From: an uncultured Ruminococcus sp.
Lineage (GTDB): Bacteria; Bacillota; Clostridia; Oscillospirales; CAG-272
DNA length: 45,677 nucleotides
NCBI GenBank assembly: GCA_902783905.1
Contig: CACZSP010000015.1
Coordinates: 1 to 45,677, forward strand
Direction: 5' to 3'
In this document: positions 19,289 through 42,437 of the stretch, piece after piece
Numbering within the stretch: position 1 is the first letter of the stretch
Layout of the letters: each line of letters begins with the position of its first letter
The notes under the pieces: model-generated
Seen by the model: the letters and a program-made list of their open reading frames with translations, nothing else
Database searches by the model: none
Told to the model about the DNA's origin: nothing
Translations under genes and position numbers: made by a program

Positions 19289-19297
19289 TGAATTCCT

Positions 19298-21845: not shown

Positions 21846-21855
21846 GACTGCCTCC

Positions 21856-23031
21856 TCATATTATGCTTCCCGGAAGAACGGTCTGTCCGGGCTCCACCTT
21901 TTCACGGTGTCCGACGACCGTCAGTTCTTCTGCGCCGCTCGCTCCGACAGCCGACCGGCGCCCGACAACCGTTTCCTCGCCGATCATCGCGTGCCAGACC
22001 GACGCGCCGTCTTCTATGACGGCGCCCGGCATTATGACCGAATCGCGTACGACGGCTCCTTTTCCGACGCTGACTCCGACGGAAACGACCGAATTTTCGA
22101 CCGTTCCCCCGATCACGCAGCCCTCGGCGATATATGAGTTTACGACCTGCGCCCCGTCGGATACCACCGTCGACGGCATGGCGTAGTTGCGCGAATAGAT
22201 CCTGAACGACGAATCCTCTCCCTCTCCGATCGGACAGGAGGGATCGAGAAGGTCCATGTTTGCCTGCCAGAGAGACGGAAGCGTTCCCACGTCCCTCCAG
22301 TATCCTCCGAAGGTGTAGGCGAACATCCTCTCCCCCGCCCCCAGCATCGCCGGAATGACGTTCTTGCCGAAATCGTTGTCCGAGGAGGGATTGTTTTCAT
22401 CCTCCTCGAGATATTTCTTCAGCAGCTTCCAGTCGAAAACGTAAACTCCCATCGAGGCGAGATCGCTCTTCGGGTGCTTAGGCTTTTCTTCGAAATCGGT
22501 TATCCTGCCCTCTCCGTCGGTGCTCATGATGCCCATGCGGGTGGCGTCTTCAAGCGGTACCGTCCGCACGGCGATGGTACACGCCGCCCGGTTCTTTTTG
22601 TGCGCCGCGATCATCTTCGAATAATCCATCTTGTAGATGTGATCCCCCGAAAGGATGAGAACGTACTCGGGCGAGTATTTTTCGACGAAAGGTATGTTCT
22701 GGTAGATGGCGTTTGCCGTCCCCTTGAACCAGTTGCTGCTTCCCGACGTGGTGTAGGGAGGCAGTATGTGAACGCCGCCCCAGTTGCGGTTGAGATCCCA
22801 GGGCATTCCGTTCCCTATGTAGTCGTTGAGCTCCATCGGCTGATACTGGGTAAGAATACCTACCGTATCGATCCCCGAATTGACGCAGTTGGAGAGCGAG
22901 TAATCGATGATCCTGTATTTTCCCCCGAAGGGTACAGCGGGCTTCGCGGTGTTCTCGGTAAGAACGTACAGTCTGCTTCCCTGCCCTCCGGCGAGAAGCA
23001 TGGCTATGCATTCCTTTTTGCGTGAATTCAT
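21856..23031 (-). CDS. glgC: Glucose-1-phosphate adenylyltransferase
   Basis: 391 aa. [10 protein letters not shown] nucleotide-binding loop, [15 protein letters not shown] and [12 protein letters not shown]. Confidence 0.9.
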
Positions 23032-24878
23032 ATCGTTCTGCTCCTTTCATCCCGACGTATCTTATAATAAACCGCAGACAGCGGATAAAGATCGAAAACG
23101 GCCGAATCGGAAAAACCGTCGAAGCTGCCGCGCTTCGTCCTGACGGTCCTTCTTTTTGCCCCGTCCGACGAAAACACCGGCCGCGCCCAGCCGGCCGCGG
23201 GCATACCGATCCGGTATTCCTCATACCTTCTCGGCGCGAAATTGAATATGCAGACGAGGCTCTCCCCCGCGCGCCCCCGTCTTTCGAAGGCGATGACGCA
23301 GTTTTCCCTGTCGTCCACCTTAAGCCAGGAAAAGCCGTCCCATCCGGAATCCTTCTCCCAGAGTTCGGGAGTTTCCCGGTAGAAACGGTTAAGTCCGGCG
23401 AAATAACCGCAGAAATCCCTGTGCGCGTCGTAGGCAAGCAGAAGCCAGTCCAGTTCCCGCCGGTAGTCCCATTCGATGAACTGGGCGAGTTCGTTGCCCA
23501 TGAAATTCAGTTTTTTGCCCGGGCGGGCGAACATATAGGCGTAGGTCAGCCGCAGAGCCCGGAATTTATCCTCGTAGGAGCCCCGCATCCTGCCGATCAC
23601 CGACTTTTTGCCGTGGACCACCTCGTCGTGAGAAAACGGAAGGATGTAGTTTTCCGAAAAGGCGTAGGTCATACCGAAAGTCAGCCGTTCGTGCATGCCG
23701 GGACGGTATATCGGATCGGCCGACATATAGTCGAGGGTGTCGTGCATCCAGCCCATGTCCCATTTGAAGCCGAAGCCGAGACCCCCGTCGTACGGGGGCT
23801 TCGTCACTCCCGGGAAAGAGGTGCTCTCCTCGGCGATCATAAGCACCGAAGGATCGGTCGCGTAGGCCGCCGTGTTCATTTTTCGCAAAAAATCGACCGC
23901 GGCCCGGTTCACGTTCCCTCCGCCGGGAGCCGGACGCCACTGCCCGGGTTTTCTCGCGTAGTCGAGATAAATCATTGAAGCCACGGCGTCGGCGCGGATA
24001 CCGTCGATATGGTATTCGTCTATCCAGAAGGCGACCGACGAACAGAGGAAGGATACGACCTCCCTGCGCGAAAAATCGAATATTTTAGTCCCCCATTCGG
24101 GATGCTCCGACATGAGCGGATCGCCGCTTTCGAAGCAGGTCGTCCCGTCGAACAGCGCCAGGCCGTGAGAGTCCTTCGGGAAATGCGCCCCGACCCAGTC
24201 GAGAATAACTCCTATTCCCTCGGCGTGGAAGGCGTCCACAAGCGCCTTGAACCCGTAGGGCGTGCCGTATCTTGACGTCGGCGCGAACCAGCCGGTCACC
24301 TGATATCCCCAGGATTCATCCAGCGGATACTCGGTCACAGGAAGAAGCTCGACGTGGGTAAAGCCCATGCTTTTTACGTAGGGAACCAGCTCTTCGGCAA
24401 GCTTTTCGTATGAAAAGGGACTTCCGTCCGCGTATCTTTTCCAGGAGCCGAGGTGCACCTCGTAAATGCTGACCGGAGAGGAATACGGGTCTTTTTTTCT
24501 TTTTTCTTCGAGATATTCCGCGTCGTGCCAGACGTATCCGCCGACGTCGCAGATCTTCGACGCGGTCCCGGGACGGGTCTCGGAATGGCGGGCGAAGGGA
24601 TCGCACTTTTCCCTTTCGACTCCGTCGGCGCCCTCTACGACGAATTTGTAGCAGTCGAACTCCCGGGCGGCGGAGGAGCGCAGCTCCCAGAGCCCGTCGC
24701 GTCTGCCCATTTCCTCTCTGCCCCAGCCGTTGAAATCCCCCGAGAGAAATACCTTTGAGGCGTTAGGAGCCCAGACGCGGAAAACGTAGCCGTCCCCTTC
24801 ACGCAGGCAGCCGAGAATACGGTAGGCGGAAGACGACGTCCCGTCGTAAAACTCTTTGATTTCACGCGACAGATCCAC
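23028..24878 (-). CDS. glgB: 1,4-alpha-glucan branching enzyme
   Basis: 616 aa. [42 protein letters not shown] and [12 protein letters not shown] start preceded by GGAGAGGGGGAAAG. Confidence 0.9.
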
Positions 24879-25087: not shown

Positions 25088-25116
25088 TTGACTTGTTCTT
25101 TTATTTATGTTATACT
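25088..25116 (+). promoter_or_regulatory. SigA-type promoter of the RDD gene, divergent from glg
   Basis: TTGACT (25088-25093), exactly 17 nt, then TATACT (25111-25116), preceded by TGT. Confidence 0.7.
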
Positions 25117-25146: not shown

Positions 25147-25890
25147 ATGGAATTCTCTCTGGAAAAAGCAGGGATCGGAAAGAGGATATCGGCTTTTCTT
25201 TTCGATTTCATTATTTTTTCGGTGATCGCGACCGGTCTCGCTTTTCTCGTTTCGGTGATAACCGGTTACGACTCCCACAGCGAGCGGCTGGGAGAGATTT
25301 ACGAAAAATACGAAAAGGAGTACGGAATCTCCTTCCAGCTGTCGGCGGACGAGCTTGCCGCCATGACGGATGATGAGCTTACCGCCTACCGGGAGAAATA
25401 CGCCGCCGCCGAATCCGCGGTCGCCGGCGACCCGGAGGCGTCCCGGGAGTTTTCGACCGTTGTCGACCTTTCTCTCATCATCACGTCGGTCTCTCTTTTC
25501 ATCGCGACGTTTTTATCCGAGTTTATCCTGCCGCTCCTCCTCGGGAACGGTCAGACTCTCGGCAAAAAGATTTTTTCCATCGGGGTGATACGTCCCGACG
25601 GCGTACGGCTGTCGCGCATACAGCTTTTCACCCGCGCGATACTCGGCAAATACGCGGTCGAGACGATGATCCCCGTTCTTTTGATTATGCTCTTCTATTT
25701 CCGCGGCATGAACGCCCTGCTCACCTTTGCTCCGGTTGCGGCGATCGCCGCAGCGCAGCTGATCTTCTTCTGCGCGAGCGGCAGACGCGCGCTGATACAC
25801 GACGTCCTCGCCGGATCGGTCGCCGTCGACGCGCAGACGCAGATTATTTACGCGGACGAGAAGGAAAAGGAAATGAATAATGAAAAATGA
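25147..25890 (+). CDS. RDD-family integral membrane protein
   Basis: The ATG at 25147 was chosen because the ORF track's start at 25021 runs across the promoter. GKRISAFLFDFIIFSVIA and GQTLGKKIFSIGVIRPDG are RDD-type blocks. Several TM segments. Confidence 0.65.
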   Translation: MEFSLEKAGIGKRISAFLFDFIIFSVIATGLAFLVSVITGYDSHSERLGEIYEKYEKEYGISFQLSADELAAMTDDELTAYREKYAAAESAVAGDPEASREFSTVVDLSLIITSVSLFIATFLSEFILPLLLGNGQTLGKKIFSIGVIRPDGVRLSRIQLFTRAILGKYAVETMIPVLLIMLFYFRGMNALLTFAPVAAIAAAQLIFFCASGRRALIHDVLAGSVAVDAQTQIIYADEKEKEMNNEK

Positions 25891-25940
25891 AAAATGAATA
25901 GTTGATCTTTACGATTTTTCATTTTTAACTTTTCATTCGT

Positions 25941-25989: not shown

Positions 25990-27090
25990 ATGAAAGTTGA
26001 ACTTCAGAACCTGACAAAAATCTTTCCCAGCCGGAACAAGAAATCAAAAGAGGAAGTCGTCGCGGTAAACGATTTCACCTTTACGATCCCGGACGGAAAG
26101 CTCGTCGGACTTCTCGGACCCTCCGGATGCGGAAAGAGCACCACGCTCTATATGATCTGCGGACTCGAAAAACCGACGAGAGGCAAGATCTTCTTCGGAG
26201 ACGACGACGTGACCGACCTGCCGCCCGAGCACCGCGGAGTCGGACTCGTCTTCCAGAACTACGCGCTTTACCCGCACATGACGGTCAAGCAGAACATCCT
26301 TTTCCCGCTTGAAAACCTCAAGGGCGCCGAGCGCCCGACCCGTCAGCAGATGCTCGATCGCGCCTACGAGGCGGCAAAGCTGGTTCAGCTCGACAAGCTG
26401 ATGGACCGCAAGCCGAACGAACTGTCCGGCGGACAGCAGCAGCGCGTCGCCATCGCCCGCGCCCTCGTCAAAATGCCGCGCGTTCTGCTTCTCGACGAGC
26501 CGCTTTCAAACCTCGACGCCCGTCTGCGTCTCCAGACCCGCGAGGAGATCCGCCGGATACAGAAGGAAACCGGCATCACCACCATCTTCGTCACCCACGA
26601 CCAGGAAGAGGCGATGAGCATCTCCGACGTCATCGTGGTCATGAAGGAGGGCGTCCTCCAGCAGATCGGCAAACCGCAGGACGTCTACGAGGATCCTGTC
26701 AACCTCTTCGTGGCAAAATTCCTCGGCACGCCTCCCATCAACGTCTTCGACGGAACAGTCGCCGAAGGACGCCTCTTTATCGGCGACAACAACGTCCTCG
26801 CCGTTCCGGGCGCCCGCGACGGAAAGGTCTTCGTCGGAATCCGTCCCGAGGGCTTCATCGTCGATCAGGGGGGACCCTTCGTCTGCAACCTGACCAACGT
26901 GGAGGTCATGGGACGCGACTGCAGCGTCGTTTCGACGCACCCGGCCTCTCTCAACCCGACGGTCCGCTCGATAATCGACTCCGACGTAAAAATCGACCCG
27001 TCGGCGGAAAAAGTGTGCTTCTCGCTCAAGCCGCACAAAACCTATCTGTTCGACGCCGAAACGTCGGAACGCATTTATTTCGGTGGTTGA
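25990..27090 (+). CDS. ABC transporter ATP-binding protein, MalK/MsmX/UgpC type
   Basis: 366 aa. Walker A GPSGCGKST, signature LSGGQQQRVAIARA, Walker B LLLDEPLSNLD, plus a C-terminal MalK-like regulatory/OB domain. Confidence 0.9.
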   Translation: MKVELQNLTKIFPSRNKKSKEEVVAVNDFTFTIPDGKLVGLLGPSGCGKSTTLYMICGLEKPTRGKIFFGDDDVTDLPPEHRGVGLVFQNYALYPHMTVKQNILFPLENLKGAERPTRQQMLDRAYEAAKLVQLDKLMDRKPNELSGGQQQRVAIARALVKMPRVLLLDEPLSNLDARLRLQTREEIRRIQKETGITTIFVTHDQEEAMSISDVIVVMKEGVLQQIGKPQDVYEDPVNLFVAKFLGTPPINVFDGTVAEGRLFIGDNNVLAVPGARDGKVFVGIRPEGFIVDQGGPFVCNLTNVEVMGRDCSVVSTHPASLNPTVRSIIDSDVKIDPSAEKVCFSLKPHKTYLFDAETSERIYFGG

Positions 27091-27091
27091 T

Positions 27092-28048
27092 ATGGTCGAA
27101 AGCAAAAACCAGTGGAAGGCGTGGGTCTACCTTTCGCCCGCTCTCTTTCTGCTCCTCATTTTCACCGTATGGCCGATCGTTAACACCCTTCGCATGGCGT
27201 TTCTGAACGAATACGGCACGTTGAGCGAGGCGGGAGGCGCATCATTCACCTTCGGCATTCAGAACTTCATATCGGTCCTGAAGTACAAGAGATTCCTCCT
27301 CTGCCTCGGCAACACGATGCTTCTGACGGTCCTGACGGTACCGATCTCGACGCTCCTCGCGCTGATCATATCGGTCTGCCTCAACTCGATAAAAAAGCTC
27401 GGCCGGCTGCTTCAGACGATCTATTTTCTTCCCTACGTCACCAACTCGATAGCCATCGGAATGGTTTTCGCCGCCATGTTCAACATAGTCGGCAACGTGA
27501 CCAGCCCCGATCTTTCCGATCCCGCCAACATAATCGTCACGTCAGGTATAATAAACAACATTATCCAGTTCTTCGGCGGACAGCCGATAAACTGGGTCAA
27601 CGTGGGTTCCTCCTACGTCGCCAATATCGCCGTGATGGTGATCTACATAATATGGAACGCCCTTCCCTTCAAGATCCTCATTCTTCTGGGCGGACTCCAG
27701 TCGGTCAACAAGCAGTACTATGACGCCGCAAAGGTCGACGGCACCTCGCGCGTACGCACCTTCACCCGCATCACCGTACCGCTCCTCTCCCCGATGATCG
27801 CCTACGTAGTCATAACCGGATTTATCGGCGGATTCAAGGAATATTCGAGCATAATCGGTATATTCGGTGAAAACCGCGGACCGGTCGGAGAACCGAAGCG
27901 CCTCAACACCATGGTCGGATTCATCTACGACGCTCTCGAATCCGACGCCCAGGGCCGCGCCAGCGCGGCGGCGCTCATACTGTTCGTCATTATTCTCGCC
28001 GTGACGCTTCTCAACCTCTACGTGAGCAAGAAGCGCGTGCATTACTGA
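27092..28048 (+). CDS. CUT1-family ABC transporter permease (MalF/UgpA-like)
   Basis: The first ATG (27092) lies just after the upstream stop. Six TM segments and an EAA-type loop (YYDAAKVDGTSRVRTFTRITVPLL). Confidence 0.85.
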   Translation: MVESKNQWKAWVYLSPALFLLLIFTVWPIVNTLRMAFLNEYGTLSEAGGASFTFGIQNFISVLKYKRFLLCLGNTMLLTVLTVPISTLLALIISVCLNSIKKLGRLLQTIYFLPYVTNSIAIGMVFAAMFNIVGNVTSPDLSDPANIIVTSGIINNIIQFFGGQPINWVNVGSSYVANIAVMVIYIIWNALPFKILILLGGLQSVNKQYYDAAKVDGTSRVRTFTRITVPLLSPMIAYVVITGFIGGFKEYSSIIGIFGENRGPVGEPKRLNTMVGFIYDALESDAQGRASAAALILFVIILAVTLLNLYVSKKRVHY

Positions 28049-28058
28049 GAGGTGCAAA

Positions 28059-28946
28059 ATGAACAGAACAGTTACGGCAGAGACAGATATCGGCAGAAAA
28101 ACGAAAACCCAGAAGGTGTTCGGGACTCTGGTCAAGGTTGTTATATACGCTTTTCTCATCGCTGTGGCGATAAGCGTAATTTTCCCGTTCTACTGGATGG
28201 TCATTTCCTCTCTCAAGGGCCGCGCCGAGTACGAACTCAGCGTTCCGACCCTTTTCCCGAGGAAGATTCTCTTCTCGAACTACCTCGAAGCCTTTGAAAA
28301 GGGCAACCTCGGCAGGCTTTTCCTCAACACGGTGTTCGTCGGAGTCGTGTCCACCCTTCTTTCCCTCGTCATAACCGTGCTTACGGCTTTTGCCTTCGCG
28401 CGCCTTGAATTCAAGGGCAAGAATCTCCTGTTTGCCGCGTTGCTTGCCACCATGATGATACCCGGCGAGCTCTTCACCATCACCAACTATATCACCGTCA
28501 ACTCCCTCGGATGGATGAAGTCCTACAGAGTTCTCATTATTCCCTTCCTCGTCAGCGTGTTTTACATCTACCTGTTGCGCCAGAACTTCCTGCAGATACC
28601 CAACGAGCTTTATCTCGCGGCGAAGGTGGACGGCACCAGCGATATAAAATACCTCTGGAAGGTGATGATCCCGCTTTCTCTCCCGACTCTCATCTCTATC
28701 ACCATTCTGAAAATGATGGGCGCCTGGAACTCATACGTGTGGCCGCGCCTCGTCGCCAACGACGAAGCCCACAAGCTCGTCACCAACGGTCTTCGCGGCG
28801 CCAACCTCATCTACGAGGACGGCACGACGAACTTTCCCGTCCAGATGGCGGCGGTCGCCCTCGTTTCGATCCCTCTCTTCCTTGTATTCATCTTCCTGCG
28901 CAAGTACATCATGAAAGGCGTCAGCCGCAGCGGAATCAAGGGATAA
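28059..28946 (+). CDS. CUT1-family ABC transporter permease (MalG/UgpE-like)
   Basis: 295 aa. EAA loop LYLAAKVDGTSDIKYLWKVMIPLS; multiple TM segments. Confidence 0.85.
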   Translation: MNRTVTAETDIGRKTKTQKVFGTLVKVVIYAFLIAVAISVIFPFYWMVISSLKGRAEYELSVPTLFPRKILFSNYLEAFEKGNLGRLFLNTVFVGVVSTLLSLVITVLTAFAFARLEFKGKNLLFAALLATMMIPGELFTITNYITVNSLGWMKSYRVLIIPFLVSVFYIYLLRQNFLQIPNELYLAAKVDGTSDIKYLWKVMIPLSLPTLISITILKMMGAWNSYVWPRLVANDEAHKLVTNGLRGANLIYEDGTTNFPVQMAAVALVSIPLFLVFIFLRKYIMKGVSRSGIKG

Positions 28947-28981
28947 CAACGATATTAATTCAAAACGGAAGGAATACCGAC

Positions 28982-30400
28982 ATGAAAAAAATCAGGACTG
29001 CATCGCTTCTTCTGGCAGCCGTAATTCTGCTTCTCTCCTTTACCGGATGCGGCGGATCAAAAGCTCTCCCGAACTTCGACGTTCCCGAAGGCGGATACGA
29101 CGGAAGCGAAGTAACGATCAAATTCTACCACACCATGGGCTCCAACCTTCACGACGTCCTCATGATCTACATCGAGGAATTCAACAAGCTCTATCCTCAG
29201 ATCCACATCGAGGAGGAGCAGGTCGGCGGATACGATGACGTCCGCGACCAGATAAGCAAAGAGATCTCGGTAAAGGGACAGCCCAACATCGCGTACTGCT
29301 ATCCCGACCACGTCGCTCTTTACAACATAGCCAAGGTCGTCGCGACGCTTGACAACCTCATTGACAGCAAACTCGAGGTCACCCGCGCCGACGGAACGAC
29401 CGAGATACTCGGTCTTACCGACGAGCAGAAAGCCGATTTCATCGAGGGCTACTACAAAGAGGGACAGCAGTTCGGAGACGGACTTATGTACACCATGCCC
29501 TTCTCGAAATCGACCGAGGTCCTTTACTACAACAAGACCTTCTTCGATGCCAACAACATCCGGGTTCCCACGACCTGGGACGAACTCGAGCAAGTCTGCG
29601 CGAAGATAAAGGAAATCGATCCCAAATCCATCCCGCTCGGATACGACAGCGAAGCTAACTGGTTCATCACGATGTGCGAACAGTACGGCTCTCCCTACAC
29701 CAGCGCGACCGGCCGGAAATATCTCTTCGACAACCAGACCAACCGCGATTTCGTCAAAAAATTCCGCGAGTGGTACAAGAAGGGTTATCTGACGACCCAG
29801 AGCATTTTCGGAGCGTACACCTCCGGTCTGTTCACCGCCACCGACGCCGACGCCGTCAAGAGCTATATGTCGATCGGCTCCTCCGCCGGCGCGACCCATC
29901 AGCGTCCCACCAAGGGCAGCGACGACAAGTACCCCTTCGAGGTAGGCATCGCGACTATACCTCAGGTCGACACGTCCAACCCGAAGGTCATCTCCCAGGG
30001 ACCGTCGGTCTGCATATTCAAGAAGGACAACCCGCAGGAGGTCCTGGCTTCCTGGCTCTTCGTCAAGTTCCTGACGACAAGCGTTGAGTTCCAGGCCGAG
30101 TTCTCAATCGCCTCCGGATACGTTCCCGTCATCAAATCGGTTTCCGAGAACGAGGTTTACAAGGAATTCCTCGCCAAGGCCGACGGCGGCGACTTCGTAT
30201 CCGCTCTTTCGGCAAAGATCTGTCTCGAGCAGGAAAAGGCCTACTACACCTCTCCCGCCTTTAACGGATCTTCCACCGCCCGCAGCCAGGTCGGCGATCT
30301 TATGGCAAAGGTACTTACCGCCGACGACGGCGGAAACGTCGACAATATGATTGCGAAGGCGTTTGCCGACGCAATCGACGAATGCGAGTACAACGGATAA
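28982..30400 (+). CDS. ABC transporter extracellular solute-binding lipoprotein (family 1)
   Basis: The internal ATG at 28982 gives MKKIRTASLLLAAVILLLSFTGC-GG (lipobox). Size and composition are typical of a CUT1 solute-binding protein. The upstream part of the tracked ORF overlaps the permease out of frame. Confidence 0.85.
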   Translation: MKKIRTASLLLAAVILLLSFTGCGGSKALPNFDVPEGGYDGSEVTIKFYHTMGSNLHDVLMIYIEEFNKLYPQIHIEEEQVGGYDDVRDQISKEISVKGQPNIAYCYPDHVALYNIAKVVATLDNLIDSKLEVTRADGTTEILGLTDEQKADFIEGYYKEGQQFGDGLMYTMPFSKSTEVLYYNKTFFDANNIRVPTTWDELEQVCAKIKEIDPKSIPLGYDSEANWFITMCEQYGSPYTSATGRKYLFDNQTNRDFVKKFREWYKKGYLTTQSIFGAYTSGLFTATDADAVKSYMSIGSSAGATHQRPTKGSDDKYPFEVGIATIPQVDTSNPKVISQGPSVCIFKKDNPQEVLASWLFVKFLTTSVEFQAEFSIASGYVPVIKSVSENEVYKEFLAKADGGDFVSALSAKICLEQEKAYYTSPAFNGSSTARSQVGDLMAKVLTADDGGNVDNMIAKAFADAIDECEYNG

Positions 30401-30416
30401 ACTCCGCGGAAAACGA

Positions 30417-31760
30417 ATGAAAAAGCGTTTACTGATTTTAACTGCGGCTCTTCTCGCCCTCGTTCTCATCCTCGTCTCCTGCCAGCGCGGGAGCGGGGAC
30501 GGGACGGACAGCGGCTCGGGCCAGTCCGGCGACGCCGTCGACTACGCCGCGAGCGTCACACTCGATCCGGGATCGGGCACCCTGCGCGCCGAAGTCACGG
30601 TAAAAACTTACGTCGACGGCGACACGACGCATTTCAACATTCCCGAAAACGTATACGAGACCGGACTGCTCAAGGCGAGATATATTGCCGTCAACACCCC
30701 CGAATCGACCGGAAAAGTCGAGGAATGGGGCAAGAAGGCGTCGAATTTCACCAAAGAGAAGCTGTCCGGCGCCGAATCGATAGTCGTCGAATCGGATACG
30801 GCAAACTGGGACATCGACTCGACGGGCACCCGCTGCCTCGTATGGGTCTGGTATAAGCCCGCCGGCGGCGACGCCTACCGCAACCTCAATATCGAGCTTC
30901 TTCAGAACGGGCTTGCCATCGCCTCCTCCTCGGCCAACAACCGCTACGGAAGCGTCTGCATGCAGGCGATCGATCAGGCGAAGGCGCAGAAGCTCAACAT
31001 CTATTCCGGACAGAAGGATCCCGACTTCTATTACGGAGACGCGCGCGAGATAACTCTCGCCGAGCTGCGTATAAACACCGAGGCGTACAACGCACAGAAG
31101 GTCGCTTTCGAGGGAGTCGTCGTTCTCAACAACAACAACGGCGTCTACGTCGAGGAGTTCGATCCCGAAAACGGACTGTACAACGGCATTTACGTCTACT
31201 ACGGCTTCGGCCTCTCGGGAGAAGGGCTTCAGATACTGTCGGTCGGCAACCGCGTTCGCATCGTCGGCACCGTTCAGTATTACGAGGCAGGCGGGACCTG
31301 GCAGGTTTCCGGTCTTACCTACCGTCAGATGAAGCCGAACGACCCGGGCAACATACAGAAGCTCGGCGAGGGCTTCAACGGCGCTTTCGTTGAGATCGAT
31401 CCGGCGCAGTTCGCCTCCGGCAAGGTGACCGTCACCGTCGGAGAGGACGAAAAGAAGGAATTCGACTATGCGGCTCTCATCCTCAACTCGAGCGTGTCGG
31501 CAAAATCGCTTAAGGTAAAGTCGATCTACACGACCAACAACGAGACGAGCTCGTCCAACGGAGCGATGACGCTCACCTGCGAAGCGCCGGACGGAACGAA
31601 GATCCCGGTCCGCACCGTCGTTCTTTACGACGCCGACAACCGCATCATCACAGCCGACAGATACGAAGGAAAAACGATCGACGTCCGCGGGATAGTCGAT
31701 TACTACAGCGGAGACTACCAGATCAAGGTCTTCTCCGACAGCGACATAACAATTCACTGA
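30417..31760 (+). CDS. Staphylococcal-nuclease (thermonuclease) family lipoprotein with a C-terminal OB-fold-like domain
   Basis: The ATG at 30417 gives MKKRLLILTAALLALVLILVSC-Q (lipobox). It aligns by eye to SNase: VDGDTTHF (DGDT), KARYIAVNTPES (RLLLVDTPE), GTRCLVWVW (YGRGLAYIY), NIELLQNGLAIA (NEALVRQGLAKV), AKAQKLNIYS (AKKEKLNIWS). Confidence 0.75.
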   Translation: MKKRLLILTAALLALVLILVSCQRGSGDGTDSGSGQSGDAVDYAASVTLDPGSGTLRAEVTVKTYVDGDTTHFNIPENVYETGLLKARYIAVNTPESTGKVEEWGKKASNFTKEKLSGAESIVVESDTANWDIDSTGTRCLVWVWYKPAGGDAYRNLNIELLQNGLAIASSSANNRYGSVCMQAIDQAKAQKLNIYSGQKDPDFYYGDAREITLAELRINTEAYNAQKVAFEGVVVLNNNNGVYVEEFDPENGLYNGIYVYYGFGLSGEGLQILSVGNRVRIVGTVQYYEAGGTWQVSGLTYRQMKPNDPGNIQKLGEGFNGAFVEIDPAQFASGKVTVTVGEDEKKEFDYAALILNSSVSAKSLKVKSIYTTNNETSSSNGAMTLTCEAPDGTKIPVRTVVLYDADNRIITADRYEGKTIDVRGIVDYYSGDYQIKVFSDSDITIH

Positions 31761-31775
31761 AGAGGTAGAAAAGCA

Positions 31776-34037
31776 ATGAAAAAATTCCTCGCGTTACTTT
31801 TATCGGTAATGCTCGTGCTCGGCGCTCTTGCCGCCTGCAACAATCAGGAACAGCCCGACAACGAAAAGGACGGACTGACGCTCGCGAAGGACATGGTCCG
31901 CGCGATGTACAAGGACGCCCCCGAAGCGACCGCGTCGGATTATCAGGTGATCGCGTCGACAAATATCGACAACGTTAAATACGACATCACTTGGTCGGTC
32001 GACGTTGCGTCGGGAGTCACAGTCGGAACGACCGTGACCGACAACCAGATCACCGTCGACGTCGATGAAAAGACCGAGACCGAGATCGTTTACGTCCTGA
32101 AGGCAACGATAACCGGACCGGACGGAAAGACCGCGGAAACCACCTTCAACCACAAGGTCCCGGCGTTCCGCGAGCTGTCGTGGCAGGAATACGTCGACGC
32201 TCCCGCCAAATCCACGGTGGTCGTCAAGGGCGTTATCACCGGCATCATGGCAAAATCGAAGGGCAACTCCTACAACTGCATTTATCTGCAGGACAAGGAC
32301 GGCGGATATTACGTTTACGGTATGGCCACCGACCCCGTGACCGACGACAAGCTTGAAGTCGGAATGGAGATCCGCGTCACCGGAGCCCGCGACACCTACA
32401 GCGGCACCTACGAGATCGCACAGGGCACCGCCGTCGTCGAGATAATCAACTCCGAAAAGACCGCCGTCACCCCCGCCGACTACACCGAAGCGTTCAAGAA
32501 CGCGAAGGATCTTAAAGACAAGTCCCTTGTCGAAAAACAGGCGCTTCTCGTGACGATCAAGGGCGTCGAGATCGTAAAGCAGACCGAATCCGACGCCAAG
32601 AGAGGTTACTTCAGGTTCAAGCTCGGCGAAAACACGAGCTACATCCGCATCTCCTCTTCCGTCTGCCCGCTCACCAAGGACGAACAGACCGCCTTCAAGA
32701 GCGAATTCGAATCCCACACCGGCTGGATAGCCGACGCGACCGGCGTCATCTGCGTTTACGACGGCGCCTTCTATCTGACCCCCGTCACGGCCGACGCCTT
32801 CAGATACGTAAGTCTGCCCGAAAAATCGGACGCCGAAATGGTCGCCTATGAAAAGGAAAATCTCACAATTCCCGCCAACGTGACCGAGGATTCCGAGATC
32901 GATCTGCCGGCGACCGGCGGCACATATTCCAAGGTCGCCGTCACCTGGACGTCCGACAAGGATTGCGCCAAGGTCGACGGAGGCAAGCTCAAGGTCACCC
33001 TCCCCGAGGAGGAGACAAAGGTCAAGCTCACCGCCGAGCTCAAGTGCGGAAGCGTGACCGAGACCCGTGAATTCGAGATCACCGTCGACGCCGCCGCGAA
33101 AGCAAACTACAAGACGACCGTCGTCGACGCTCCCGAGCCCGGCAAGTCATACAAGTTCGCCATGGATCAGAACAAGCTCGGCAAGACGCTCTACTTCACC
33201 GGCGAGATGGACGGCAACTACCTTGCGACCTCCGACAAGGCCGAAAAAGCGGTGGATCTGACCGTCGAGCAGGTCGAGGGCGGCTACCGCGCCTACTTCG
33301 TAAAAGACGGCAAGAAGATCTATATCGATATCTACGAGTACACCCAGGGCAAGGTAGGCGTTCAGCTGACCGAAACTCCGACCTGCGTCTTCAACTGGAA
33401 CGAGGCTCTGGCGATCCCGACCGTTTCTCTCATAGGCAACACCTATTATCTCGGCGCCTATAAGGAATTCGCGACTATGAGCGTATCGCTCATCAAGTAT
33501 CTGACCGACGATCCGACAGCCGTCGGCGTCTCCCAGTTCCCCTCTCACCTTGTGACCGTTGAAGAAGTGGTCCTCAAGGCCGAGGCAGTCACTTCTCCCG
33601 AAGTCGGCAAATCCTACAAGTTTGCCATAGAACAGGCAAAGCTCGGCAAGACCCTCTACTTCACCGGCGAGATGGACGGCAACTACCTCGCGACCTCCGA
33701 CAAGCCCGAAAAGGGCGTCGATCTGACGCTCGAGCAGGTCGAGGGCGGCTACCGCGCCTACTTTGAAAAGGACGGCAAAAAGACCTACGTCGACATTTAC
33801 GAGTACACGTCCGGCAAAGCAGGAGTCCGTCTGACCGATACTCCGACCGCCGTCTACGTCTGGAACGCGGCGCTTTCGATACCCACGGCGGAAGTCGCGG
33901 GCGGAACGTATTACCTTGGCTCCTACAAGGAGTTCGCGACGATGAGCGCGTCTCTCATCAAATACCTGACCGACGACCCGAGCGCCGTCGGCGTCTCCCA
34001 GTTCCCGTCGCACCTCGTCGTGCTTGCGGAAGGATAA
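31776..34037 (+). CDS. Large multidomain lipoprotein: OB-fold-like domain, Ig-like domain and two tandem 138-aa repeats
   Basis: 753 aa. Lipobox LGALAAC-N. The segment VVVKGVITGIMAKSKGNSYNCIYLQDKDGGYYVYG...MEIRVTGARDTYSGTYEIA parallels the nuclease C-terminal domain. An Ig-like module is present (IDLPATGGTYSKVAVTWTSDKD...KVKLTAELKCGSVTETREFEITV). Confidence 0.7.
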   Translation: MKKFLALLLSVMLVLGALAACNNQEQPDNEKDGLTLAKDMVRAMYKDAPEATASDYQVIASTNIDNVKYDITWSVDVASGVTVGTTVTDNQITVDVDEKTETEIVYVLKATITGPDGKTAETTFNHKVPAFRELSWQEYVDAPAKSTVVVKGVITGIMAKSKGNSYNCIYLQDKDGGYYVYGMATDPVTDDKLEVGMEIRVTGARDTYSGTYEIAQGTAVVEIINSEKTAVTPADYTEAFKNAKDLKDKSLVEKQALLVTIKGVEIVKQTESDAKRGYFRFKLGENTSYIRISSSVCPLTKDEQTAFKSEFESHTGWIADATGVICVYDGAFYLTPVTADAFRYVSLPEKSDAEMVAYEKENLTIPANVTEDSEIDLPATGGTYSKVAVTWTSDKDCAKVDGGKLKVTLPEEETKVKLTAELKCGSVTETREFEITVDAAAKANYKTTVVDAPEPGKSYKFAMDQNKLGKTLYFTGEMDGNYLATSDKAEKAVDLTVEQVEGGYRAYFVKDGKKIYIDIYEYTQGKVGVQLTETPTCVFNWNEALAIPTVSLIGNTYYLGAYKEFATMSVSLIKYLTDDPTAVGVSQFPSHLVTVEEVVLKAEAVTSPEVGKSYKFAIEQAKLGKTLYFTGEMDGNYLATSDKPEKGVDLTLEQVEGGYRAYFEKDGKKTYVDIYEYTSGKAGVRLTDTPTAVYVWNAALSIPTAEVAGGTYYLGSYKEFATMSASLIKYLTDDPSAVGVSQFPSHLVVLAEG
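33141..34019 (+). repeat. In-frame tandem duplication (2 x 414 nt, period 465 nt) inside the 753-aa lipoprotein gene
   Basis: Copy 1 is 33141-33554 and copy 2 is 33606-34019. Both run from GKSYKFA... to ...VSQFPSHLV. 112/138 aa are identical by my manual alignment. Confidence 0.9.
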
Positions 34038-34070
34038 CGAGTAAAACACTGTAACAAAACAATTGATCTC

Positions 34071-34140
34071 GGGGCTGTTTAAAAAGTCAACTTTTTAAAC
34101 AGCCCCGCAAATTCGGCGGGCGGGATTCCGCCGAATTTGC
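34071..34140. terminator. Two adjacent GC-rich hairpins ending the (+) operon
   Basis: Hairpin 1 is GGGGCTGTTTAAAAAG / CTTTTTAAACAGCCCC (34071-34106). Hairpin 2 is GCAAATTCGGCGG / CCGCCGAATTTGC (34107-34140). U-tracts are poor or distant. Confidence 0.5.
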
Positions 34141-34309: not shown

Positions 34310-35452
34310 CTATCCGATCTTAACGAGCAGATACGCCGCGGCGCCGAGAACGAAAAGGAAGACGGCGTTGAGCAGCGTGAAGACTTTCATATATCTTCCT
34401 CCCTGTCCCGGATAGAGAAGCTTGAATTCGCTGTAGGTTATAATGCTCGCCAGCGACGCGATAAGCGTCCCGGTCCCTCCGATATTGACGCCGTAAAGCA
34501 ATTCCCGGTAATTGTCGGTAAAGCGCGAAAGGAGGACGGCTGTCGGCACGTTGCTTATGAACTGGCAGGACGCGAGCGACGGCAGAAGCACTCCGCCCGA
34601 CAGAAGTTTTTCCATCACCGTCTTAACGCCTTCGGTCCTCGCGAGATTCCCCGAGAATATAAAAAAGAAGAAAAAAGTGAAAAGCAGCGGGTAGTCGACC
34701 GAAAGGAGGGCGCGTCTGTCGGCGACGATTATCCCGACCGTCACTACGGCGAGAGCGATCCGGTAGTCGATCAGACGGAAAACGCAAAGGACCGAAACGG
34801 CAAAAAGGCAGAGAAGAAAAACCGTTTTCTTCACCTTCAGCCGGTCGGCAAGGTCTTCGGTAAGCAGGATCTTTTCCGGCTTCAGGAAAAAGCAGCAGCC
34901 GACGAGCATTGCGACGGCAAGCAGGAAAAGCGGGAGCATTATCAGGGTGAACTCGCCGGCGGGGATATTGAATTTCGTGTAGATATAAAGGTTCTGCGGG
35001 TTGCCGAAGGGAGTCAGCATCCCGCCGAGGTTTGCCGAAATATTCTGCAGAACGAAAACGAAGGCGCTGTATTTTTCCTTTTTCGCGACCGAGAGAGCGT
35101 AATATCCGATCGGAAGGAAGGTGATCAGCGCCATGTCGTTGGCAAGCACCATCGAGCCGAGGAAGGTCATTACGACGAGCACTATCGCCAGCACCCGCAG
35201 ATTTCCCGTCAGGTTGACGGTCTTACGGGCGATTATGGTGAAGAATTTGACGTTGCGCAGGGCGCAGACGACCGCAAGCGTGATGAAAAGGCAGGAAAGC
35301 GTTTTCCAGTCGAAATAGCCGAGATATTCCCGGTCGGGAGGAACGAAAAAGCAGGTAACGAGCGCCGCGGCCGCCGCTATGCAGACGACCGCGTGATTTT
35401 TTACAAAAAACTTCAGTCTGTGACCGAGACCGATTTTTTCTTTTGAAGACAT
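34310..35452 (-). CDS. ArsB/NhaD/citrate-transporter-superfamily anion permease (YbiR-like)
   Basis: 380 aa, about 10 hydrophobic segments. The N-terminal pattern FFVPPDREYLGYFDWKTLSCLFITLAVV resembles YbiR-type permeases. The call rests on general resemblance only. Confidence 0.55.
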   Translation of the reverse strand: MSSKEKIGLGHRLKFFVKNHAVVCIAAAAALVTCFFVPPDREYLGYFDWKTLSCLFITLAVVCALRNVKFFTIIARKTVNLTGNLRVLAIVLVVMTFLGSMVLANDMALITFLPIGYYALSVAKKEKYSAFVFVLQNISANLGGMLTPFGNPQNLYIYTKFNIPAGEFTLIMLPLFLLAVAMLVGCCFFLKPEKILLTEDLADRLKVKKTVFLLCLFAVSVLCVFRLIDYRIALAVVTVGIIVADRRALLSVDYPLLFTFFFFFIFSGNLARTEGVKTVMEKLLSGGVLLPSLASCQFISNVPTAVLLSRFTDNYRELLYGVNIGGTGTLIASLASIITYSEFKLLYPGQGGRYMKVFTLLNAVFLFVLGAAAYLLVKIG

Positions 35453-35468: not shown

Positions 35469-36446
35469 TCAGAAAACGTTCGGGTTGGCGGATTTGAATT
35501 CGGCGCAGAGGCGGTCGGCGTCCGAAAGGAGGTCGCCGATCTCGCTTCTTTCGTAAAGAGTCGCTCCGCAGGCGCATTCGTGTCCGCCGCCGCGGTATTT
35601 TTCCGCCAGCCGGTTGACCGGGACGAATCTTGAGCGCAGACGCACGCGTATGCTCCCGTCCGGATTGTCTATAAAGGCGATCCAGATTATGCTTCCCCGT
35701 ATGTTTTCCATATAGGAGACCGACGCGCTGGCGTCCTCCTGCGAAATTCCGAAGCGGGATATGACGTCGGACGTTACCGTCAGATACGCGACTCCGGATC
35801 CTGTGCGCTTTATTTCCCCGAGCGCGAACGCCTTGAAGGCGACCGCCTCGAAATCGTCGAGATTCAGCTGTGAAAAGAGGGTCTCGGTGTCGATCCCGGT
35901 GTCAAGGAGCGTTCCGGCAAGCCGCAAAGTCTCGCCCGAGACGTCCCTTGTGCGGAATCTGCCGGAATCGGTGACCATTCCGCAGAAGAGAAGAGCCGCG
36001 GCTCTTTGGTTCAGCACGAGCTCGTCCGGAAATTCCGCCCGGAAAGCCGCGATCATCTCGCAGGTCGACGAACGCCGCTCCTCAACCCAGGCGCATTCGC
36101 AGTAGGGTCTTATATCCACGTGATGGTCGATCCGGATCCGATCTCCCGCCGACGCAAAATACGGATTTGCCAGGCGGTCCTCGGTCGCCGTGTCGAGAGC
36201 TACGGCAAGATATCCGGGATAATCCTCCTCGGGAACGGGAGCGTCCTCATTCCCCATAAAGGCAAGATGCTCGGACGAATCCGAGTTGACGCACACCACC
36301 GTCTTTCCGGGGAAGGACGCGCGAAGGATCTCCCGCAGTCCGTAGGAGGCGCCGAGTGCGTCTCCGTCGGGCCGCCTGTGTCTTACTATGACGATCTTTT
36401 CGTGTTTTTTTATCTTTTCCAGTATCCGTGCGGTTATTTCCGGCAT
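35469..36446 (-). CDS. DHH/DHHA1 phosphoesterase, NrnA-like (paralog 2)
   Basis: The ATG at 36446 (MPEITARILEKI...) lies 7 nt after the upstream stop. Motifs: VRHRRPDGDALGAS, IRIDHHVD (DHH), YRGGGHECACG (DHHA1 GGGH). Confidence 0.75.
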   Translation of the reverse strand: MPEITARILEKIKKHEKIVIVRHRRPDGDALGASYGLREILRASFPGKTVVCVNSDSSEHLAFMGNEDAPVPEEDYPGYLAVALDTATEDRLANPYFASAGDRIRIDHHVDIRPYCECAWVEERRSSTCEMIAAFRAEFPDELVLNQRAAALLFCGMVTDSGRFRTRDVSGETLRLAGTLLDTGIDTETLFSQLNLDDFEAVAFKAFALGEIKRTGSGVAYLTVTSDVISRFGISQEDASASVSYMENIRGSIIWIAFIDNPDGSIRVRLRSRFVPVNRLAEKYRGGGHECACGATLYERSEIGDLLSDADRLCAEFKSANPNVF

Positions 36447-36453
36447 TTTCCCG

Positions 36454-37395
36454 TCATTCCTTTCCCGACTGCAGCGCGTCAAGATCCGCAAGGAGGGCGC
36501 GCATTTCGTCCTCGTCCCGGAGGGTGCATCCGCTCGCCTTTGCGTGTCCGCCTCCGCCGTATTTGACCGCTACCGGGTTGATATTGTATTCGGCCGACCT
36601 TATCTCGCAAAGGATCCCGCCGTCGGTCGCGGTGAAGTTGACCCAGACTCCGACGCCCCGGATGTCCCCCATGACTCCCACCATTCCGCGGGAGATCGCA
36701 AACGGATCGGCTCCCGAGGACTCAAGTTCCTCCCTGGTCGTGTATATATAAGCGGTGTTGGCCGGAGTGAAGCGGATCTTGAGGATATATTCGGCTCGGC
36801 GCTTCACGTTCTCGAATTTTTCGGCGTAAAGCTCCCGGTAGACACGTCCGATATCCGCTCCGGCGTCGGCGAGCCGGGCGGCGCGAAGGAAGGTCGCGCT
36901 CCCCGTAGAGTCGTATCTGAAACGCCCCGAATCGGTCACGAGCCCGGCGTAAAGAGCGGTCGCCGCGTCGGGAGTCAGCGAAAGGTCCGCTTCGGCGGCA
37001 AGATCGCAGATCATCCCGCAGCAGCTTTCGGCCGAAGTATCGGTTATTTCGGTCGAACATATCTTTTCAACGAAAATATGATGATCGATCCGCAAGGTCT
37101 CCTTTGCGCCGAGGACCCGGGCGTCGCTCACGAGAGACGCCGCCGAGCAGTCGAGCAGTATACCGAGAGCCCGGGAATACTCCCCGTCCCCGATACCGTC
37201 GGTCCCGGAGCCCGGAATGAAGGAATATCTTCCCGCGGGATCTCCCGCGCAGAGCACCTTTTTGCCGGGGTAGTTTTCCCTTATAACAGCGGCAAGACCC
37301 GCCTGACTGCCCACGGCGTCTCCGTCGGGACGCGAGTGGCGGTGGATAATTATTTCGTCGTATTTTTCTATCAGCTTTATCGCGCTTTCATACAT
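36454..37395 (-). CDS. DHH/DHHA1 phosphoesterase, NrnA-like (paralog 1)
   Basis: 313 aa. Motifs: IHRHSRPDGDAVGSQ, LRIDHHIF (DHH), YGGGGHAKASG (GGGH). Confidence 0.8.
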   Translation of the reverse strand: MYESAIKLIEKYDEIIIHRHSRPDGDAVGSQAGLAAVIRENYPGKKVLCAGDPAGRYSFIPGSGTDGIGDGEYSRALGILLDCSAASLVSDARVLGAKETLRIDHHIFVEKICSTEITDTSAESCCGMICDLAAEADLSLTPDAATALYAGLVTDSGRFRYDSTGSATFLRAARLADAGADIGRVYRELYAEKFENVKRRAEYILKIRFTPANTAYIYTTREELESSGADPFAISRGMVGVMGDIRGVGVWVNFTATDGGILCEIRSAEYNINPVAVKYGGGGHAKASGCTLRDEDEMRALLADLDALQSGKE

Positions 37396-40310: not shown

Positions 40311-40391
40311 TTCAGCTTCTCCGTATCGTCTTTATACAAAAATATGTCGTTGTTCTGTTTTTCCTTATCATTTCACCACTTTTCCGGCAGT

Positions 40392-41669: not shown

Positions 41670-41698
41670 AAGAGCCTCCACAATCGGAATTTAAGACG

Positions 41699-41718
41699 TT
41701 TCTGCCGTAAGTTTCGAC
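41699..41718 (-). repeat. 20-bp direct repeat, promoter-proximal copy
   Basis: Minus strand GTCGAAACTTACGGCAGAAA starts 3 nt downstream of the -10 box of the ATPase promoter. Identical to 41785-41804. Confidence 0.9.
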
Positions 41719-41721
41719 TAT

Positions 41722-41750
41722 ATTATACCTCCTCCAATCATAAAAATCAA
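41722..41750 (-). promoter_or_regulatory. SigA-type promoter of the AAA+/DUF4143 gene
   Basis: Minus strand reads TTGATT (41750-41745), exactly 17 nt, then TATAAT (41727-41722). Confidence 0.6.
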
Positions 41751-41784
41751 GTACTTTGCCAACGGTTGTTCGAAAGTTTTGTCA

Positions 41785-41804
41785 TTTCTGCCGTAAGTTT
41801 CGAC
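41785..41804 (-). repeat. 20-bp direct repeat, distal copy
   Basis: Minus strand GTCGAAACTTACGGCAGAAA, 34 nt upstream of the -35 box. Lies at the transition from AT-rich to GC-rich sequence. Confidence 0.9.
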
Positions 41805-41915
41805 CGGTTGCGGTGCTTCCGGAACGACGCCGCCTATCGATTGTTCCAATCCGGCATTTGAGACGCCGGCACGTCACAATCAAATGAATAAGGGACGCAA
41901 ACCATATTGTGAAAC

Positions 41916-41957: not shown

Positions 41958-41989
41958 CAGCTTATTCGTTTGTTGCAGTGATCAGAAGA

Positions 41990-42430: not shown

Positions 42431-42437
42431 AATAAAT

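Follow-up and report, generated by a model that had tools for sequence, protein, structure and literature searches.

The stretch of DNA analysed here (the window) comprises 45,677 nucleotides (nt), positions 1-45,677 on the forward strand of contig CACZSP010000015.1 (GCA_902783905.1), and derives from an uncultured Ruminococcus sp. (GTDB: Bacteria; Bacillota; Clostridia; Oscillospirales; CAG-272). It harbors a compact gene cluster in which an ATP-binding cassette (ABC) importer of the CUT1 type is encoded together with a surface nuclease of the staphylococcal type and a large lipoprotein of 753 amino acids (aa). We suggest that this cluster serves the scavenging of nucleic acids, that is their capture at the cell surface, cleavage by the nuclease, import of small phosphorylated products and a final processing step in the cytoplasm. 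We consider this proposal probable, with real room left for other explanations. An earlier note, made from the sequence alone, had read the region as a candidate system for capture, degradation and uptake of extracellular DNA, and the folds, the gene linkage and the grouping of the binding protein are all in favour of such a reading. The module is best filed as a walled-cell variant of the mycoplasma-type nuclease-plus-ABC module for nucleotide scavenging. New in it are the binding protein of the Ugp/UpG type (UpG, uridylyl-3'-5'-phosphoguanosine), the surface proteins bearing domains of the oligonucleotide/oligosaccharide-binding (OB) type, the conserved gene of an RDD-family protein, the linkage to NrnA and SurE genes and the spread across phyla.

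Evidence for a functional unit comes from the comparison of loci. When each species was represented by one genome, relatives turned up in at least 359 genomes, and the 80 best loci were analysed. Gene order was read by tblastn with the proteins of the window, and 35 loci counted as well-flanked, with at least 7.5 kb available upstream and at least 6 kb downstream. They belong to different species, among the Clostridia, Bacilli and Spirochaetes, and all 35 show the gene order RDD-ATPase-permease-permease-binding protein-nuclease. The nuclease gene thus adjoins the same ABC genes in every well-flanked locus, and a lipoprotein of the same family as the 753-aa protein follows it in most loci, its length being highly variable. 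In some loci the slot 3' of the nuclease gene is occupied by proteins of 1,700-2,500 aa which belong to a different cluster.

In the window (coordinates refer to the plus strand unless stated otherwise), six genes fill the block 25990-34037 with intergenic gaps of 1, 10, 35, 16 and 15 nt. The earlier note had described six plus-strand genes with gaps of 1-35 nt, and its coordinates and gaps match the list of open reading frames (ORFs) exactly. It had also taken these six genes for the complete operon, and here a correction is needed. Upstream of the ATPase gene lies a gene for an RDD-family membrane protein (25147-25890; 247 aa from the ATG, with the open frame beginning upstream at TTG 25021; Pfam RDD, E 2.8e-15), for which a search of NCBIfam gave no match. 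This gene stands directly 5' of the ATPase gene in 35/35 well-flanked loci. The gap between the two genes is 99 nt here; its median in related loci is 44 nt, and it is often 14-25 nt there. The sole good promoter-like site of the area, which consists of TTGACT, 17 nt and TATACT with a TG (25088-25116), lies ahead of the RDD gene, and no such site was detected in the interval that separates this gene from the ATPase gene. This site is a consensus match only and presents a candidate operon promoter. The RDD gene is very probably the first gene of the operon, making seven genes rather than six. Because of their close spacing and conserved order, the genes are presumably co-transcribed.

As to the other end of the transcript, the earlier note saw no hairpin until 34071. 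Indeed, the first strong one is a perfect 18-bp inverted repeat (34070-34107), which starts 33 nt past the last stop codon and is not followed by a T-run. It likely marks the end of the transcript, presumably through intrinsic termination. Terminator-like sites as such are not in excess in the region (15 found, 13.9 expected in shuffled sequence). An AT-rich inverted repeat (25872-25937; 24 nt, 88% complementary) extends over the stop codon of the RDD gene and the gap that follows it. It was considered as a regulatory element and rejected for want of conservation among relatives, whose gap often measures only 14-50 nt. An Rfam scan of the whole window revealed neither a riboswitch nor any other known RNA.

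The importer and its solute-binding protein

The importer consists of a UgpC/MalK-type ATPase whose C-terminus forms a regulatory barrel (25990-27090; Pfam ABC_tran, E 7.5e-38, and OB_MalK; NCBIfam UgpC, E 3.8e-101), a UgpA-like permease (27092-28048, starting with ATG 27092, with an alternative GTG at 27083; Pfam BPD_transp_1, E 1e-17; best NCBIfam match UgpA), a UgpE-like permease (28059-28946; BPD_transp_1, E 5.9e-17; best NCBIfam match UgpE, E 1.1e-31) and a lipoprotein solute-binding protein (28982-30400; lipobox FTGC; Pfam SBP_bac_8 and SBP_bac_1). The Pfam domain set of a CUT1 system, that is a SBP_bac_1/8 protein, two BPD_transp_1 permeases and an ATPase with the MalK-type C-terminal barrel, is therefore complete at significant scores. 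For all four components, the best NCBIfam match is the Ugp counterpart, yet the scores lie far below the equivalog cut-offs. The earlier description of the transporter as "CUT1 or sugar type" thus holds for its first half and is misleading in the second: judged by these matches, the transporter belongs to the glycerol-phosphate (Ugp-like) branch of CUT1 rather than to a sugar-like one.

The binding protein falls into the branch of CUT1 that unites UgpB and the UpG binder. It is not a UgpB orthologue, because its NCBIfam UgpB score (48 bits) is far below the equivalog cut-off of 411. In a search of all solved structures, its closest relatives are those of the 7C0F-7C1B series (E about 2e-17), followed by a marine UgpB (9LFF, E 6e-10) and thereafter by various sugar binders intermingled with further UgpBs. 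The entry 7C0F shows a protein of Thermus thermophilus whose ligand is the dinucleotide UpG (PMC12718374, main text and supplementary Table S5); its structure is credited in that article to Chandravanshi et al., FEBS J 2021. According to the same source, UgpB, the glycerophosphocholine binder and the UpG binder share two tyrosines and two serines, all strictly conserved, by which the oxygens of the phosphate are oriented; in glucose binders these residues are not conserved (PMC12718374).

An alignment was built from the binding protein of the window, eight of its orthologues, UgpB of E. coli and the alignable part of 7C0F. All four phosphate contacts are present: Y84, S177, S301 and Y380 correspond to Y42, S121, S248 and Y323 of E. 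coli UgpB and to Y58, S129, S243 and Y316 of 7C0F. They are invariant in the eight orthologues and also in a set of 20 orthologues. The tryptophan pair which clamps glycerol in E. coli UgpB (W169 and W172) is absent. Its positions are held by A225 and F228 here, by A176 and F179 in 7C0F, and by S or A and then F in the orthologues. Since the phosphate-contact residues are kept and the tryptophan clamp is replaced, the ligand is most likely a phosphate ester other than glycerol-3-phosphate, and a nucleotide-type ligand would be the best-supported guess. The earlier note had left room for a close grouping with oligosaccharide binders, and no such grouping was found: the best solved relative binds a dinucleotide, and the phosphate contacts are in place. 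The protein has in common with 7C0F the two tyrosines, the two serines, the alanine and phenylalanine at the clamp and the branch of CUT1. It differs in that the likeness is distant and in that it is about 65 residues longer, contains insertions and is a lipoprotein.

The same importer could, in principle, transport glycerophosphodiesters or other non-nucleotide organophosphates, such as products of teichoic acid or phospholipid breakdown, and the nuclease would then act as a general phosphodiesterase or phosphate releaser. The Ugp systems of E. coli and M. tuberculosis (UgpB-UgpAEC), which take up glycerol-3-phosphate and glycerophosphodiesters, provide the best NCBIfam matches for all four components, and the phosphate contacts are common to UgpB and the glycerophosphocholine binder. 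Nevertheless, we regard this explanation as improbable. The glycerol clamp of UgpB is missing, with A225 and F228 as in the UpG binder, and the dinucleotide binder leads the next family by seven orders of magnitude in E-value. There is no gene for a glycerophosphodiesterase of the UgpQ or GlpQ type in the operon. Moreover, the nuclease site is intact in the enzyme that constantly accompanies the transporter, this enzyme also carries an OB-type domain of the kind that binds nucleic acids, and the linked cytoplasmic genes, discussed below, act on oligonucleotides and nucleotides.

The family of the binding protein is large, with 465 clusters at E <= 1e-30 in a search of the full library. Among its relatives (P0244, P0253, P0270, P0274 and P0363), many cluster representatives measure 570-1,535 aa and carry 130-900 residues ahead of the binding domain. 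These N-terminal extensions are mostly without a Pfam match; one contains BspA-type leucine-rich repeats and one Listeria-Bacteroides repeats. Some of the long relatives may reflect mis-called starts, compare the spurious 629-aa frame at 28511-30400 in the window.

The nuclease and the large lipoprotein

Three products of the operon carry lipoboxes, as the earlier note had stated: FTGC with Cys23 in the binding protein, LVSC with Cys22 in the nuclease and LAAC with Cys21 in the 753-aa protein, each closing a signal peptide. All three are presumably lipid-anchored on the outer face of the membrane. In the nuclease, the lipobox cysteine is invariant in an alignment of 40 homologues.

The nuclease (30417-31760; 447 aa; mean predicted local distance difference test (pLDDT) score of the predicted structure 83) is composed of a catalytic domain and two beta-barrels. 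Its alignment with staphylococcal nuclease, noticed already from the sequence, is borne out at several levels. The catalytic domain (residues 55-200; 30579-31016) matches Pfam SNase (PF00565) at residues 87-197 with E 1e-12 and 48.8 bits against a cut-off of 21, and the predicted structure superposes on crystal structures of staphylococcal nuclease with a template modelling (TM) score of 0.80-0.86 normalised to the target (Foldseek). The list of structural matches is filled by staphylococcal nuclease variants and is therefore informative on the catalytic domain alone, which has the staphylococcal nuclease fold. D69, R88, E96 and R139 are the counterparts of Asp21, Arg35, Glu43 and Arg87, and they are invariant across the 40 homologues. 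The number of nuclease homologues exceeds 6,600, mostly with 60-65% identity over the full length.

The catalytic domain is followed by barrel 1 (residues 220-305; 31074-31331), which is OB-fold-like with a predicted order strand-strand-strand-helix-strand-strand and a profile match to OB repeats, and by barrel 2 (residues 352-447; 31470-31757), for which an OB topology is predicted and the sequence evidence is weak. The C-terminal half of the protein spans the DUF5689 profile weakly (E 0.021).

The 753-aa protein (31776-34037; mean pLDDT of the predicted structure 90.5) is a multidomain surface lipoprotein and a candidate for nucleic acid capture. Its N-terminal domain, a helix and a beta-sandwich (residues 32-130; 31869-32165), has no Pfam match; it is conserved and occurs also in the short variants of Spirochaetes and Clostridia. 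Then come the OB-fold-like barrel 1 (residues 140-232; 32193-32471), with a profile match to repeats of the PF01336 type, and barrel 2 (residues 250-345; 32523-32810), which is beta-rich with one long helix and without a significant profile match to OB repeats. The two barrels jointly match DUF5689 with 28.4 bits against a cut-off of 28.6. An immunoglobulin (Ig)-like domain, aBig_2 (residues 367-438; 32874-33089; Pfam PF20578, E 7.2e-8), is matched in 38/40 members of the family. The C-terminus is formed by two tandem beta-rich repeats of 155 aa (residues 441-595 and 596-750; 33096-34025), 77% identical to each other and without a Pfam match. Homologues fall into length classes of about 600, about 750 and about 900 aa, which corresponds roughly to one, two and three copies of this repeat. 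A homologue search with one repeat returned 2 matches, with the word index limiting the search. In other species, the position of the 155-aa repeats is filled by arrays of canonical OB domains.

The earlier note had proposed that the nuclease and the 753-aa protein share an OB-like segment of roughly 100 aa. In pairwise comparison the likeness is weak (BLASTP E 0.027); profile to profile, residues 209-450 of the nuclease and 144-353 of the 753-aa protein match with E 6.5e-6. As an OB reference we used a profile of 37 repeats of about 100 aa, taken from the shorter lipoproteins encoded 3' of the nuclease gene in related species (hhalign). Barrel 1 of the 753-aa protein matches it with a probability of 85% (E 6e-6) and barrel 1 of the nuclease with 79.5% (E 1.5e-5), and the two first barrels match each other with 92% (E 7e-7). 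Three unrelated control domains reach 0.2-1% against the OB repeats (E 0.05-0.33). In both proteins, the predicted strand order of barrel 1 fits an OB barrel of five strands in which strands 3 and 4 are separated by a helix. The shared segment is thus real and its first barrels are probably OB-related, while the second barrels are without such support.

The nature of the reference repeats is suggested by the shorter lipoproteins themselves, which in many related species combine the N-terminal domain known from the 753-aa protein with three subsequent repeats, each about 100 aa long. The repeats of one Sphaerochaeta lipoprotein match Pfam PF01336, "OB-fold nucleic acid binding domain", with E 1.1e-7, and one family member (P0202) contains three PF01336 stretches after its Ig-like domain (E 4e-14). 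When members were scanned singly, PF01336 was detected in 8/40 lipoprotein homologues; among 40 nuclease homologues it was detected in 9 and tRNA_anti_2 in 8, both weakly. Both proteins of the window stay below the Pfam threshold for PF01336. A relationship of the shared segment to nucleic-acid-binding OB domains appears reasonably supported.

Linked cytoplasmic genes and a model of nucleic acid use

Downstream of the operon and not part of it, on the minus strand, there are two genes for NrnA-like DHH/DHHA1 phosphoesterases (35469-36449 and 36454-37395; Pfam DHH and DHHA1 in both). For both products, the top NCBIfam match is NrnA, an oligoribonuclease/pAp phosphatase (E 1.1e-61 and 3.3e-63). 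A gene of a CitMHS-family transporter (34310-35452, minus strand) lies between the operon and this pair. Within flanks of up to 8 kb on each side, an NrnA-like pair occurs near the module in 25/35 loci. A gene for the 5'/3'-nucleotidase SurE (TIGR00087, 155 bits against a cut-off of 135) occurs in 24/35, usually beside the NrnA pair, and a gene for a dGTPase-like HD protein in 10/35. The placement of the NrnA/SurE group varies; it is upstream in L008, L025 and L061 and elsewhere downstream, on either strand. The group is found also in one Sphaerochaeta locus (L072) and in one locus of Bacilli (L058), and the pair also in L004, L016 and L017. SurE is a cytoplasmic enzyme. The NrnA-like proteins, whose genes are linked to the operon by position, are candidate cytoplasmic hydrolases of short oligonucleotides. 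NrnA enzymes degrade oligonucleotides of 2-5 nt, and NrnA of B. subtilis processes short RNAs in vivo, hence is intracellular (PMC9757072).

Mycoplasmas offer a parallel, if MG190 of M. genitalium presumably corresponds to MPN140 of M. pneumoniae. The permease gene MG189 of the nuclease-linked transporter of M. genitalium is directly followed by MG190 (primer coordinates, PMC3004944), and MPN140 is an NrnA (PMC7373297), so that a NrnA homologue would follow the permease gene there and an NrnA-like pair is linked to the module here. M. bovis has a tandem pair of NrnA-type genes with dinucleotide and nanoRNA activities, important for nucleotide supply (PMC7373297). By analogy, this adjacency supports a functional link of the NrnA genes with the module.

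We propose the following course of events. The seven genes, from RDD to the 753-aa lipoprotein, would be transcribed together, and three of their products would become lipid-anchored on the outer face of the membrane. The 753-aa lipoprotein might hold extracellular DNA or RNA through its OB-type domain. The anchored nuclease, assisted by an OB-type domain of its own, would cut the polymer into mono-, di- and short oligonucleotides with 3'-phosphates, as the products of staphylococcal nuclease are 3'-phosphorylated. The binding protein, with the phosphate site of the UgpB group and a pocket presumably resembling that of the UpG binder, would pick up the small phosphate esters and pass them to the UgpAEC-like importer. 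Finally, the two NrnA-like phosphoesterases might complete hydrolysis to nucleotides and nucleosides, joined by SurE in most of the relatives. The more specific part of this model, namely that di- and short oligonucleotides enter still phosphorylated through the Ugp-derived ABC system and are finished inside, is put forward tentatively; we would not bet on it as readily as on scavenging in general.

Several observations weigh against the model or parts of it. Firstly, the likeness of the binding protein to 7C0F spans only about 300 aligned positions (E 2e-17), which shows homology and fixes no ligand, and the four conserved residues hold phosphate esters generally, so that glycerophosphodiesters or other organophosphates may be bound as well. 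The mycoplasma lipo_P68 model (NCBIfam) matches 18/20 orthologues of the binding protein weakly and over a short stretch, with a best E of 5e-8; the protein of the window scores 25.6 bits against a cut-off of 200. Secondly, 40/40 sequences have asparagine in place of Asp40, which is a calcium ligand in staphylococcal nuclease (Asn93 here, codon 30693-30695, in the motif VNTPES, with V/I-N-T-P-E-S across the family). The side-chain oxygen of Asn93 could still bind metal, and the change may alter the metal preference of the enzyme; one characterised mycoplasma homologue is Mg2+-dependent (PMC3585158). Thirdly, barrel 2 of the nuclease matches the OB repeats weakly (probability 10%, E 0.003) and barrel 2 of the 753-aa protein does not match them (0.4%, E 0.15). 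The C-terminal 155-aa repeats of the latter could bind something besides nucleic acid, and a structure search with its whole chain was uninformative, returning multidomain Ig and S-layer proteins with low TM and an arabinanase. Lastly, there is no SurE gene in the window, the NrnA pair and SurE are not near the module in about 30% of loci, and they are housekeeping genes in many bacteria.

Instead of importing phosphorylated fragments, the cell might degrade nucleic acids outside to nucleosides or free phosphate, and the transporter would then carry nucleosides, deoxyribose or ribose. CUT1 systems commonly carry sugars, and a combination of nucleases, surface nucleotidases and uptake of nucleosides or phosphate is the usual route of other feeders on extracellular DNA (PMC8289736). 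The operon, however, contains no nucleotidase or phosphatase with a signal peptide, the phosphate contacts of the binding protein are kept, and the linked NrnA-like and SurE enzymes act on phosphorylated substrates. Further, the nucleoside ABC importers known to us use a binding-protein family of a different kind (BmpA/PnrA type). We therefore find this explanation rather unlikely.

A true sugar or oligosaccharide importer, to which the lipoprotein genes would be linked for another reason (remodelling of biofilm DNA, escape from DNA traps, defence), seems very unlikely to us. In its favour, Pfam assigns the binding protein only to generic "extracellular solute-binding protein" families, and the weaker matches include binders of chitin-oligosaccharides and galacto-oligosaccharides. 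Adjacency in 35/35 loci of three phyla, with transporters 70-80% identical, is hard to explain without a shared function. Neither a glycoside hydrolase nor a sugar kinase or a regulator is encoded within the operon according to the ORF list and Pfam (the earlier note had remarked on the lack of the hydrolase and the regulator, rightly so), and the phosphate-contact residues are reported absent from glucose binders (PMC12718374). A reading as a defence system was dropped, since a search of the defence-system library yielded nothing beyond generic matches to ABC ATPases and nuclease domains.

Least of all do we expect a role of the surface proteins in adhesion or in taking up DNA for transformation, with the 753-aa protein as an adhesin and the transporter link incidental: Ig-like and repeated beta domains are typical of adhesins and the mycoplasma homologues of the nuclease and of the lipoprotein MslA are virulence factors (PMC12115388), but no competence genes are present, a non-specific nuclease would destroy transforming DNA, and the variable part of the lipoprotein is swapped in many species for OB arrays of the nucleic-acid-binding type, not for adhesin modules.

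Related systems, spread and neighbouring genes

The closest known counterparts of the proposed scavenging module are found in mycoplasmas. There, a lipoprotein nuclease of the staphylococcal type is encoded beside an ABC ATPase and two permeases, and the lipoprotein P80/MslA was modelled as a solute-binding protein. In M. agalactiae, the genes of the nuclease, transporter and lipoprotein are co-transcribed, and the nuclease was proposed to feed nucleotide precursors to the transporter (PMC3585158). The published model is to bind the polynucleotide, cut it and import the products (PMC3585158, PMC4045577), and a review of 2025 agrees (PMC12115388). The earlier note had mentioned mycoplasma nuclease lipoproteins beside ABC genes; published work confirms this precedent (PMC3585158, PMC4045577), and as a general idea the module is hence not new.

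The mycoplasma operons, called "putative nucleotide transporter" operons (with the nucleases mhp379, MG186, MPN133, MAG_5040 and MBOVPG45_0310), share with ours the nuclease lipoprotein, the Ugp-like ATPase, the two permeases and a binding-protein-like lipoprotein. There are also clear differences. The gene order is lipoprotein-nuclease-ATPase-permeases in mycoplasmas and RDD-ATPase-permeases-binding protein-nuclease-lipoprotein here; our module occurs in walled Clostridia and in Spirochaetes; the nuclease has two extra barrels; a separate large lipoprotein with an OB-type domain exists besides the binding protein; and the RDD gene is always present. The earlier note had called the module an elaborated version with an extra large lipoprotein. 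The separate large lipoprotein is indeed there; the DNA-binding lipoprotein MslA of mycoplasmas would be its functional counterpart, which makes it less unprecedented than supposed. Common descent of the whole module with the mycoplasma operon is plausible, and the weak but recurrent lipo_P68 matches of the binding proteins would agree with it.

Other systems resemble it in parts. B. subtilis YhcR, as Oussenko et al. are said to have described in 2004, is a wall-anchored non-specific nuclease with OB domains, a staphylococcal nuclease domain and a 5'-nucleotidase domain. As in our case, OB-type domains would thus be joined to a staphylococcal nuclease domain on the surface of a Firmicute; in contrast, YhcR is reportedly one large sortase-anchored protein with its own nucleotidase, whereas here the domains are split over two lipoproteins and accompanied by a transporter. 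We know of no ABC importer dedicated to YhcR.

In Izemoplasma and marine sediment bacteria, extracellular nucleases are clustered with transporters and phosphohydrolases, which was read as feeding on DNA (PMC8397711, PMC8289736). Judged by their descriptions, the Izemoplasma loci include a thermonuclease and are similar to ours in the clustering of nuclease and transporter genes. They are set apart, again by description, in that the nucleases of these loci are accompanied by nucleotidases and by transporters of phosphate or nucleobases (a phosphate ABC transporter in PMC8289736), and no Ugp-like importer with its own binding protein is reported beside the nuclease. The earlier note knew of no description of the module, and our literature search, which had most subscription journals outside its reach, likewise found none for walled Firmicutes or Spirochaetes; the module has apparently escaped description in walled bacteria.

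The hosts of the 80 best loci are Lachnospiraceae, Oscillospiraceae, Faecousia, Christensenellales and other Clostridia, three metagenome-assembled genomes labelled Bacilli, and about ten Sphaerochaeta or other Spirochaetes; the samples come from gut, rumen or similar sources. Identity to the proteins of the window amounts to 70-80% for the transporter parts, Spirochaetes included, and to about 60-67% for the nuclease. Spirochaete loci (L039, L064, L066, L072, L074, L076, L077 and L084) contain the whole block from RDD to the nuclease, with transporter parts 70-77% identical, and a downstream protein in the short form of about 380-470 aa, with three OB repeats in L072. Because identity is so high across phyla, we infer that the whole block was transferred horizontally among phyla of gut and rumen.

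Gut and rumen are rich in DNA and RNA of dietary, host and microbial origin, from which phosphorus, nitrogen and carbon can be drawn. To our knowledge, their use by the dominant Firmicutes of these habitats is poorly described. With at least 359 species genomes and more than 6,600 close homologues of the nuclease, the module may be a major route for nucleic acids. If our assumptions are true, it represents a self-contained locus of nucleic acid utilisation that is widespread among Clostridia of gut and rumen and, presumably owing to gene transfer, occurs in Spirochaetes too, and a walled-cell counterpart of the mycoplasma operon, either ancestral or merely related. A substrate class would be defined for many transporters now annotated as "sugar ABC transporters". 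The cargo of the long-discussed nuclease-linked transporters of mycoplasmas would be settled and the NrnA adjacency explained. As far as we know, there is hardly a documented case of a bacterial ABC importer that takes up intact di- or oligonucleotides, and the physiological context of the Thermus UpG-binding protein was not tied to a nuclease; this orphan protein would then gain a physiological meaning. There is also a lesson for annotation: CUT1 binding proteins with the phosphate site of two tyrosines and two serines should not be named sugar binders.

The remaining genes of the window are of minor concern. Just upstream of the operon, and unrelated to it, lies a cluster for glycogen metabolism (15232-24878, minus strand) with an alpha-amylase-family enzyme, glycogen phosphorylase, glycogen synthase, two genes resembling glucose-1-phosphate adenylyltransferase and one resembling a branching enzyme (labels from reading the translations). 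The genes at 8120-9916 and 11800-13350, both on the minus strand, encode a phosphodiester glycosidase (NAGPA domain) protein and a PLD-type (cardiolipin synthase-like) protein, with no conserved link to the module. At 40000-43000, G+C content drops to about 46-47% from 55-60% elsewhere in the window, and this DNA may be a recent acquisition. The dip surrounds an AAA_14/DUF4143 ATPase gene (40392-41681, minus strand), just before a gene of a 784-aa protein with a GDSL-lipase domain (42600-44954, plus strand).

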